64,000 nt of DNA, from the NCBI RefSeq assembly GCF_030013595.1, contig NZ_CP122768.1; one strand, written 5' to 3'. A model generated the notes under the pieces. It had not been told where the DNA came from and did no database searches. It saw nothing but the letters and a program-made list of their open reading frames with translations. The position numbers and the translations under genes were made by a program. Of this stretch, positions 23,316 through 25,614 are shown one piece after another. Origin of the DNA: Escherichia coli. GTDB taxonomy: Bacteria; Pseudomonadota; Gammaproteobacteria; Enterobacterales; Enterobacteriaceae. Positions within the stretch are counted from its first letter, which is position 1; each line of letters starts with the position of its first letter.

Positions 23316-24341
23316 ATGAAAGCGTTATCCAAACTGAAAGCGGAAGAGGGCATCTGGATGACCGACGTTCCTGTACCGGAACTCGGGCATAACGATCTGC
23401 TGATTAAAATCCGTAAAACAGCCATCTGCGGGACTGACGTTCACATCTATAACTGGGATGAGTGGTCGCAAAAAACCATCCCGGTACCGATGGTCGTGGG
23501 CCATGAATATGTCGGTGAAGTGGTAGGTATTGGTCAGGAAGTGAAAGGCTTCAAGATTGGCGATCGCGTTTCTGGCGAAGGCCATATCACCTGCGGTCAC
23601 TGTCGCAACTGTCGTGGCGGTCGTACCCATCTGTGCCGCAACACGATCGGCGTCGGCGTTAACCGTCCGGGCTGCTTCGCCGAGTATCTGGTGATTCCGG
23701 CGTTCAACGCTTTCAAAATCCCCGACAATATCTCCGATGATCTGGCTTCCATTTTTGATCCCTTCGGTAACGCCGTGCATACCGCGCTGTCGTTCGATCT
23801 GGTGGGTGAAGATGTGCTGGTCTCTGGTGCAGGCCCGATTGGTATTATGGCGGCGGCGGTGGCGAAACACGTTGGTGCACGTAACGTGGTGATTACTGAT
23901 GTTAACGAATACCGCCTTGAGTTGGCGCGTAAAATGGGTATCACCCGTGCGGTTAACGTCGCTAAAGAGAACCTCAATGATGTGATGGCAGAACTGGGCA
24001 TGACCGAAGGCTTTGATGTCGGTCTGGAAATGTCCGGTGCGCCACCAGCGTTTCGTACCATGCTCGACACCATGAACCACGGCGGTCGTATTGCGATGCT
24101 GGGTATTCCACCGTCTGATATGTCTATCGACTGGACCAAAGTGATCTTTAAAGGCTTGTTCATTAAAGGTATTTACGGTCGTGAGATGTTTGAAACCTGG
24201 TACAAGATGGCGGCGCTGATTCAGTCTGGCCTCGATCTTTCGCCGATCATTACCCATCGTTTCTCTATCGATGATTTCCAGAAGGGCTTTGACGCCATGC
24301 GTTCGGGCCAGTCCGGGAAAGTTATCCTGAGCTGGGATTAA
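23316..24341 (+). CDS. tdh: L-threonine 3-dehydrogenase
   Basis: 341 aa; [50 protein letters not shown]; zinc-ADH motifs. Confidence 0.95.
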
Positions 24342-24350
24342 CACAAACAA

Positions 24351-24375
24351 GGGCTGGTATTCCAGCCCTTTTTCC
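24351..24375 (+). terminator. Rho-independent terminator after kbl-tdh
   Basis: gggctggtattccagccc hairpin followed by tttttcc. Confidence 0.65.
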
Positions 24376-24579
24376 TGAGGATAATCTGTTAAATATGTAA
24401 AATGCTGTCAGTAAAATAAAGAATGGGTAATTGCGCTGATCTCTTATATAGCTGTTCTCATTATCTCTCTACCCTGAAGTGACTCTCTCACCTGTAAAAA
24501 TAATATCTCACAGGCTTAATAGTTTCTTAATACAAAGCCTGTAAAACGTCAGGATAACTTCAGAGGTAGTCGGTAATTT

Positions 24580-25614
24580 ATGATGAACAGCACCAATAAA
24601 CTTAGTGTTATTATTCCGTTATATAATGCGGGTGATGATTTCCGCACTTGTATGGAATCTTTAATTACGCAAACCTGGACTGCTCTGGAAATCATTATTA
24701 TTAACGATGGTTCAACGGATAATTCTGTTGAAATAGCAAAGCATTACGCAGAAAACTATCCGCACGTTCGTTTGTTGCATCAGGCGAATGCTGGCGCATC
24801 GGTAGCGCGTAATCGTGGGATCGAGGTGGCGACGGGCAAATATGTCGCTTTTGTCGATGCTGACGATGAGGTCTATCCCACCATGTACGAAACGCTGATG
24901 ACCATGGCGTTAGAGGACGACCTCGACGTGGCGCAGTGCAACGCTGACTGGTGTTTTCGTGAAACGGGAGAAACCTGGCAATCCATCCCCAGCGATCGCC
25001 TTCGCTCAACCGGCGTATTAACCGGCCCGGACTGGCTGCGAATGGGGCTTTCTTCCCGCCGTTGGACTCATGTTGTCTGGATGGGCATTTATCGTCGCGA
25101 TGTCATTGTTAAAAATAACATTAAATTTATTGCCGGATTACATCATCAGGATATTGTCTGGACAACAGAATTTATGTTTAACGCGCTACGTGCGCGATAT
25201 ACCGAGCAATCGTTATATAAATATTATCTGCATAATACGTCAGTAAGTCGCTTGAATAGACAGGGAAATAAAAACCTTAATTATCAACGCCACTATATTA
25301 AGATTACCCGACTGCTAGAGAAATTAAATCGAAATTATGCCGACAAAATTACGATTTATCCGGAATTTCATCAGCAAATAACTTACGAAGCATTGCGTGT
25401 TTGCCATGCGGTGCGCAAAGAGCCGGATATTATTACCCGCCAACGGATGATTGCCGAGATATTTACTTCTGGTATGTATAAGCGCCTGATTACCAATGTG
25501 CGCAGCGTGAAGGTGGGTTATCAGGCGTTACTGTGGTCTTTCCGCTTATGGCAATGGCGCGACAAAACGCGGTCGCACCATCGCATTACGCGTAGCGCCT
25601 TTAATTTACGCTAG
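24580..25614 (+). CDS. waaH: GT2 family glycosyltransferase WaaH/YibD
   Basis: 344 aa; [26 protein letters not shown]...[17 protein letters not shown] motif; position between tdh and yibQ. Confidence 0.87.

Follow-up and report, generated by a model that had tools for sequence, protein, structure and literature searches.

The tdh–waaH intergenic region

The window, by which we mean the whole stretch of Escherichia coli DNA analyzed here (64,000 nucleotides), carries the promoter region of waaH (yibD) in a spacer of 238 bp (24342–24579; 36.6% GC) that separates tdh from waaH. The features of this region are given with their coordinates, their strand and the evidence for each.

24339–24341, + strand: tdh stop codon; the spacer begins at 24342
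24346–24373, + strand: hairpin AACAAGGGCTGG/CCAGCCCTTTTT just past the tdh stop codon (inverted repeat I1 and terminator scan)
24384–24436, + strand: upstream conserved block, consensus ATCTG.AAA..TGTAAAg...TGTCAT-TGTCATAAA.AATTCGTAATTGCGC (alignment A1)
24493–24510, + strand: candidate weak PhoB box TGTAAA-AATAA-TATCTC-A, which includes motif 2 (6.2 bits with the ChIP-seq matrix, first half good)
24510–24517 and 24535–24542, no strand: 8-bp perfect inverted repeat ACAGGCTT/AAGCCTGT bracketing the BasR box (repeat I3)
24515–24531, + strand: PmrA/BasR box CTTAAT-AGTTT-CTTAAT (CTTAATAGTTTCTTAAT), in the place of a −35 element (perfect consensus match and conservation)
24542–24547, + strand: predicted −10 hexamer TAAAAC, inside cctgTAAAACgtcagg (TAnAAn 10 nt past the box)
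24580–25614, + strand: coding sequence of waaH (yibD), UDP-glucuronate:LPS(HepIII) glycosyltransferase, 344 amino acids (list of open reading frames; RefSeq annotation of 2012C-4221 and K-12)

The 341 bases around the spacer are 100% identical to strain 2012C-4221, in which, according to the annotation, tdh ends and waaH begins there, and the same bases found a match in 5,416 of 5,426 complete E. coli genomes. From 24443 to the waaH ATG, K-12 differs from the window at 2 positions, and about ten more differences are located further upstream; within 24470–24580, A24568→C is the sole difference. WaaH attaches glucuronic acid to the inner core of LPS, and a core phosphate is lost concomitantly (PMC6358824). 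The hairpin behind the tdh stop codon has 12-nt arms that are 92% complementary, a 4-nt loop and a T run that follows, and, judging from these properties, it is likely the intrinsic terminator of kbl-tdh.

The orthologue set consisted of 54 fetched loci encoding WaaH relatives. In the Enterobacteriaceae loci, tdh is found upstream of waaH, with spacers that range from 157 bp to about 1.2 kb. Several loci (L005-L007, L009, L011, L014, L015, L049, and L051) contain about 1 kb of extra DNA between the two genes; in these, the BasR box and the −10 hexamer keep their distance to the waaH ATG, and in L049 the upstream conserved block stays with waaH as well despite the extra DNA.

A BasR/PmrA box takes the place of the −35 element

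With the BasR consensus YTTAAK-N5-YTTAAK (CTTAA-N5-CTTAA; PMC1525208), the 64 kb window gave a single perfect match, at 24515–24531, compared to 0.15 expected. A perfect box in waaH orientation is present 64–71 nt before the ATG in K-12 and in 16 fetched loci from about 10 genera, and in each of these 16 orthologous loci (about 4 kb each) it is the single match on the waaH strand. The form CTTAAK-N5-CTTAAK is common to every genus with a close orthologue, that is Escherichia, Citrobacter, Salmonella, Leclercia, Cedecea, Enterobacter, Kosakonia, Superficieibacter, Pseudocitrobacter, and Siccibacter, and every box-bearing orthologue has TAnAAn exactly 10 nt downstream of the box. The sequences flanking the box vary from genus to genus, and the box with its −10 is the only part of the spacer that is conserved across about 10 enterobacterial genera. 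Within E. coli, a core of 76 bp (24485–24560) is at least 99% identical in 4,116 of 5,410 genomes.

From the position of the −10 hexamer, the transcription start is predicted near 24553–24556 (about 3,790,105–3,790,108 in K-12); a genome-wide transcription-start table has no entry near 3,790,1xx. No sigma-70 consensus promoter was encountered between 24200 and 24700, as expected for an activator-dependent promoter. On the evidence of its sequence, the core of the spacer is an activator-dependent sigma-70 promoter that lacks a −35 element and has the BasR box standing there instead.

Consensus, position and conservation all identify 24515–24531 as a BasR/PmrA box, and its binding is documented in the literature. 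The yibD gene was among those from which the PmrA consensus was derived (PMC1525208), in UPEC the yibD promoter is shifted by both PmrA~P and QseB~P and needs pmrA for its induction by Fe3+ (PMC5677524), and in Salmonella yibD is a known gene activated by PmrA and PreA/QseB (PMC2653508). This box, which had been missed in the original prediction, is the dominant conserved element of the spacer.

For the inverted repeat ACAGGCTT/AAGCCTGT around the box, some compensatory changes were noted in C. sedlakii, C. amalonaticus, and Salmonella, and its covariation amounted to 0.279 vs 0.159 in shuffles (0 of 500 reached the observed value) and to 0.11–0.15 when the partner was slid. The ACAGG of this repeat can also pair with CCTGT at 24491–24495. 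A structured RNA in the spacer was rejected, since an Rfam scan gave only chance-level matches (E 0.27–0.81) and RNAalifold produced no consensus structure over all 14 genera-wide sequences.

Phosphate control of waaH in published work

The original prediction described waaH/yibD as induced by phosphate starvation, and published PhoB-dependent induction bears this out. In O157:H7, waaH was 81-fold up in low Pi and 15-fold PhoB-dependent (PMC3978041). In an APEC pst mutant, yibD was 46-fold up, and basRS and eptA were down 1.7-fold (PMC2648988). RNA-seq of K-12 revealed about 4-fold more waaH transcript in the wild type than in ΔphoB (13,872/11,547 vs 3,032/2,925 reads; PMC10294691 Table S1), and eptA and basR were not PhoB-dependent (log2 −0.4 and −0.2, respectively; PMC10294691). 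A 140-bp 'modified yibDp' fragment, which corresponds to about 24423–24562 of the window, conferred tight phosphate-depletion induction from a plasmid and outperformed the full-length promoter in minimal medium (bioRxiv 10.1101/2020.01.26.920280).

In electrophoretic mobility shift assays, the waaH promoter of EDL933 was shifted by PhoB (10.1101/536201). In two in vivo studies, ChIP-seq and ChIP-chip gave no PhoB signal upstream of waaH, and because of this lack of occupancy Fitzgerald et al. (PMC10294691, 2023) call the regulation of waaH indirect. The tagged PhoB of that study may, as its authors point out, bind less well; with it, pstS expression was about 8-fold less (PMC10294691). The PhoB response of waaH is beyond doubt; whether it is direct or indirect is disputed in the literature. 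Yoshida 2011 reportedly described PhoB binding sites, with a footprint, at the waaH (yibD) promoter.

Indirect control through activation of BasSR is disfavoured, as eptA and basR are not PhoB-dependent and eptA and basRS fall in the pst mutant, which favours a local action of PhoB. The BasR and the phosphate inputs at waaH are both already known: both have been published and, according to the promoter paper (bioRxiv 10.1101/2020.01.26.920280), are in EcoCyc, so that in this respect the finding is not new.

An upstream conserved block is dispensable for phosphate induction

Behind the tdh terminator follows a block of about 50 bp (24384–24436) with the cross-genus consensus TGTAAA-N4-TGTCAT-TGTCAT-AAA..TTCGTAATTGCGC. 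The block is kept in Escherichia, Citrobacter, Salmonella, Leclercia, Silvania, Pseudocitrobacter, Siccibacter, and Kosakonia, and it also precedes waaH in the loci L002, L003, L008, L013, L016, L027, and L049. It comprises four same-strand hexamers of the TGTMAW type, with spacings of 10, 6, and 14 bp and no spacing of 11 bp. Among E. coli genomes the block is polymorphic: by megablast, 255 genomes matched at 99% or more and 1,981 at 90–95%, and more than 3,000 were unmatched. The block has decayed in E. coli, and the window carries a minority allele. With the classical PhoB matrix described below, it reached 8.7–12.8 bits in some orthologues and about 5 bits in E. coli.

The larger part of the block precedes the 5' end of 'modified yibDp' (about 24423), a fragment in which phosphate induction is kept, and the upstream part removed there is said to hold an NsrR site (bioRxiv 10.1101/2020.01.26.920280). 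The block is dispensable for phosphate induction. Its comparison with the consensus sequences for NsrR, CpxR, RstA, ArcA, ArgR, Fur, and PhoP gave no convincing conserved match.

The three CTGTMA motifs do not form a Pho box

In the original prediction, three half-sites of the CTGTCA/CTGTAA type were proposed as Pho-box-like repeats at roughly helical spacing. The half-site strings are indeed present on the + strand, with ctgtcagtaaaataaag at 24405, cctgtaaaaataatatctcacag at 24491 and cctgtaaaacgtcagg at 24538, and the 238-bp spacer has three copies of CTGT[C/A]A (CTGTMA) on its + strand and none on its − strand. In dinucleotide-preserving shuffles 0.31 ± 0.55 occurrences were expected and at least three were obtained in 0.35% of cases (P≈0.004), so the enrichment is genuine; over the whole window, the density amounts to 0.39 per kb per strand. 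However, the spacing is not helical. The motifs start 87 and 47 bp apart, equivalent to 8.3 and 4.5 turns of 10.5 bp or to 7.9 and 4.3 units of 11 bp, and a search for a partner hexamer at 11 bp was negative for each of the three. A full-text literature search with the motif sequences returned no match.

Two independent PhoB matrices were applied, a classical one built from 12 Pho boxes (Table S4 of PMC3978041) and one built from 59 ChIP-seq sites (Table 1 of PMC10294691). With the classical matrix, the best score in the spacer was 8.1–8.3 bits (at 24386), whereas the sites from which the matrix was built score 13.5–21.7 bits. With the ChIP-seq matrix, the best score was 6.8 bits (24515), followed by 6.2 bits (24493). 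Real ChIP sites have a leave-one-out median of 14.0 bits with a 10th percentile of 9.3, and only 3% of them score as low as the best of the spacer; the canonical promoters of phoA, phoB, phoH, pstS, phoE, and amn reach 15–24 bits. In composition-matched shuffles of the spacer, 6.8 bits were reached in 34.5% of cases. The original prediction had itself named such a matrix scan as its check, and as no single site in the spacer is significant with either matrix, there is no Pho box here by that measure.

The spacer likewise contains no CTGTCAT-type 7-bp repeats 11 bp apart, its sole 11-bp direct repeat being CTTAAT/CTTAAT, and none of its scores both matches those of verified sites and exceeds background. 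By position only does it qualify as a Pho box: the unit at 24515–24532 stops 10 nt short of TAAAAC, and there is a second unit at −22. A canonical Pho box at any of the three motifs is ruled out by their spacing and by the two matrices.

The three motifs differ in what they can contribute. Motif 1 (CTGTCAG, 24405) lies within the upstream block and outside the functional 'modified yibDp' fragment. Motif 3 (24539; string cctgTAAAACgtcagg) contains the predicted −10 hexamer TAAAAC, and its CCTGT is the right arm of the 8-bp inverted repeat. Motif 2 (CTGTAAA, 24492) is the sole plausible PhoB half-site among them. The original prediction is partly supported: phosphate control stands, one motif remains as a plausible half-site, and the motifs at 24405 and 24539 fall away as Pho-box-like repeats.

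PhoB-like matches elsewhere in the window

At 43898–43915, the window carries the orthologue of a K-12 ChIP-seq PhoB site in the yibL–yibT spacer (TGTAATAGTTCTGTAACG), which reads TGCAATAGTTCTATAACG here. With two substitutions at highly conserved positions it scores 5.6 bits, compared to 16.9 bits in K-12, and the yibL–yibT PhoB site may thus have been lost in this strain. In the divergent spacer between rfaD and yibB(htrL), TGTAATCATACCATCACA at 20726–20743 (+ strand) scores 14.2 bits with the ChIP-derived matrix, which is about the median of real sites. Also, several matches of 12–16 bits are found in the AT-rich waa core-biosynthesis cluster (16590, 16742, 16973, and 19216); a segment at 16.5–16.8 kb is absent from the fetched stretch of 2012C-4221 that otherwise matches the window around waaH, so that the strain of the window is a different one in this segment. 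The K-12 ChIP-seq peak list has no counterpart for the matches in the rfaD-yibB spacer and the waa cluster, and those in the waa cluster are probably driven by composition, like intragenic H-NS-associated sites of K-12.

Candidate weak PhoB sites overlap the BasR box

The two best matches with the ChIP-seq matrix lie 22 bp apart on the waaH strand: the unit at 24493 is located exactly 22 bp upstream of the BasR box at 24515. Their sum of 13.0 bits ranks 1 of 127,922 positions in the window and is reached in 0.23% of shuffles (P = 0.0023), in a post hoc test that was devised after both matches had been seen and in which half of the score is contributed by a box that is under constraint for another function. 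In units of 11 bp, four sequences follow each other in phase, TGTAAA (24493), TATCTC (24504), CTTAAT (24515), and CTTAAT (24526), and the array ends 10 nt before the −10 hexamer.

At position 5 of the half-site, all 59 ChIP sites have an A in both halves, and the 24515 unit has this A in both halves; the 24493 unit has it in its first half only, with a T in the other where 59 of 59 ChIP sites have A, at a cost of 5.9 bits. Both halves of the waaH box read CTTAATA and keep the invariant A at positions 5 and 16. Accepted PhoB half-sites include ATTAAC (phnC), TTTCAT (phoB), and ATTCAC. With the ChIP-seq matrix the waaH BasR box scores 6.8 bits, compared to 1.8 bits for the arnB box and −1.9 bits for the eptA box, both of which belong to genes that PhoB does not induce.

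The upstream unit is narrower in its distribution. The distance between GTAAAAATARTAT and the box is constant in E. coli, C. amalonaticus, C. sedlakii, and Silvania. The 24493 unit is PhoB-like in E. coli only; in L001, a divergent Escherichia locus, it scores 3.4 bits, and in the other orthologues scanned it was absent from the top four matrix matches. Alternatively, 24493–24510 may be an A/T-rich, UP-like tract at about −61 to −44. A Pho box fed by the 24492 unit with TAGTTT (24520–25) as its −10 was set aside, because TAGTTT lies inside the conserved BasR box while TAnAAn is kept in all orthologues.

Most likely, the known phosphate control of waaH works via weak, non-standard PhoB sites that overlap the BasR box. 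We give an evenly balanced assessment to its fuller form, in which PhoB binding to the phased array is direct but weak and cooperative, the BasR box is shared, and low affinity or competition explains the negative ChIP results. Phosphate-starvation control would then act on the same core as the BasR box. Like BasR, PhoB~P is a member of the OmpR/PhoB family, and it would share the geometry of BasR, binding as a head-to-tail dimer to 11-bp repeats 10 nt before the −10. Binding would be weak and cooperative and would occupy the four in-phase 11-bp units at 24493, 24504, 24515, and 24526. The promoter-proximal pair of units would be the BasR box itself, whose nTTAAYA resembles accepted PhoB half-sites. 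Low affinity, possibly together with competition from BasR and QseB, may make such binding detectable in vitro and silent in ChIP. More tentatively, one 17-bp repeat may be a docking site shared by BasR/PmrA, QseB, and PhoB, with the Escherichia-specific TGTAAA half-site two turns upstream helping PhoB.

Comparison with BasR-dependent and Pho promoters

In Salmonella and UPEC, yibD is a listed PmrA target beside arnB/pmrH, eptA/pmrC, and ugd. The K-12 arnB promoter is built like that of waaH, with a perfect BasR box, 10 nt and then a −10 hexamer, TAAAAT at arnB and TAAAAC at waaH. However, the first repeat is CTTAAG at arnB and eptA and both repeats are CTTAAT at waaH, which for this reason scores 5–9 bits higher on the PhoB matrix than arnB and eptA. 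Unlike eptA and basR, waaH is also PhoB-dependent.

Similarly, the canonical Pho promoters of pstS, phoA, phoB, phoE, and ugpB resemble waaH in that they lack a −35 element and their activator site ends 10 nt before the −10 hexamer; the spacing between Pho box and −10 at phoA and pstS equals that between box and −10 at waaH. Tandem 22-bp boxes of 11-bp units are found at pstS, and the same phasing is proposed here for waaH. Strong induction upon phosphate depletion is common to waaH and the canonical Pho promoters. In contrast to the latter, waaH has no CTGTCAT repeat, its best score is 6.8 vs 15–24 bits, three of its four units lack the conserved G of TGTCA and there is no ChIP signal in vivo.

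In Baek & Lee 2006 and Yoshida 2011, ytfK is said to be the other 'Pho regulon' gene alongside waaH. Like waaH, it stays below the canonical Pho promoters on the PhoB matrix; ytfK scores 10.9 bits. PhoB-dependent induction and two degenerate pho boxes have been reported for ytfK (PMC8600398) and, like waaH, it lacks a ChIP-seq signal and was reclassified as indirectly regulated (PMC10294691). Unlike waaH, it has no BasR box, and promoters of the sigma-S type and dependent on CRP have been reported for it (PMC8600398).

Alternative explanations for phosphate control

The main rival to weak direct binding holds that PhoB acts purely indirectly, that the promoter is one for BasR/PmrA (and QseB) only, and that the CTGTAA motifs are incidental, one being a −10 and one an UP-like tract. 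That waaH is PhoB-dependent and yet negative in ChIP-seq and ChIP-chip (PMC10294691) would follow directly, and it would agree with matrix matches of which none is significant and whose single sites are indistinguishable from AT-rich background. The ΔphoB strain, moreover, still expresses waaH substantially (about 3,000 reads), the tract at 24494–24506 would be placed like a distal UP subsite if the predicted start is correct, and what is broadly conserved is the BasR box and not the PhoB-like sequence. However, BasR activity is itself not PhoB-dependent; an active Pho response leaves eptA and basR unchanged or lowers them, and since neither is raised by Pho, the indirect route cannot simply be BasSR activation. 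The shift of the promoter by PhoB in vitro (10.1101/536201) also speaks against a purely indirect effect, and on a high-copy plasmid the 140-bp fragment gives tight and very high induction, which would fit abundant, auto-induced PhoB better than a scarce intermediary. Binding sites, as already said, were reportedly described by Yoshida 2011 too. All considered, we take purely indirect control to be a serious though rather improbable explanation.

Direct binding might also occur elsewhere within 24423–24562, namely at the CT-rich, 11-bp-phased CTCTTATATAG/CTGTTCTCATT (24441–24462), which would then serve a separate upstream promoter. Here the classical matrix finds 6.8–7.0 bits at 24441 and, 11 bp further on, 3.9 bits at 24452, and TCTTAT..GCTG is kept in close relatives (alignment A1), but both scores are below those of all sites that built the classical matrix, the ChIP-derived matrix finds nothing at 24441–24462, and the stretch is without a −10-like hexamer 10 nt downstream, all of which makes this location improbable. 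Joint recruitment of PhoB by the three CTGTCA/CTGTAA motifs as helically spaced Pho-box half-sites is very improbable indeed. Their enrichment on the waaH strand (3 vs 0.31 expected) would suit it, but spacings of 87 and 47 bp are not helical and none of the motifs has an 11-bp partner, the 24405 motif is absent from the working truncated promoter and its block varies among E. coli genomes, and the 24539 motif shares bases with the conserved −10.

Implications

The waaH promoter is used industrially as a tight phosphate-depletion switch, and its place in the Pho regulon has shifted: earlier in vitro work reported PhoB sites, and the 2023 ChIP-seq study (PMC10294691) took waaH out of the direct Pho regulon. 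The PhoB-like BasR box together with the phased upstream half-site provides a concrete target for mutation with which to address the question of direct vs indirect control. That this site is shared we infer from the present analysis; otherwise, the finding is an ordinary one and known in the literature. If the site is shared, the view of 'direct' control from in vitro work and that of 'indirect' control from ChIP-seq would be reconciled, and signals of iron, envelope, and phosphate would converge on waaH through one −35-proximal site. The waaH promoter may thus be an example of paralogous response regulators sharing one site.
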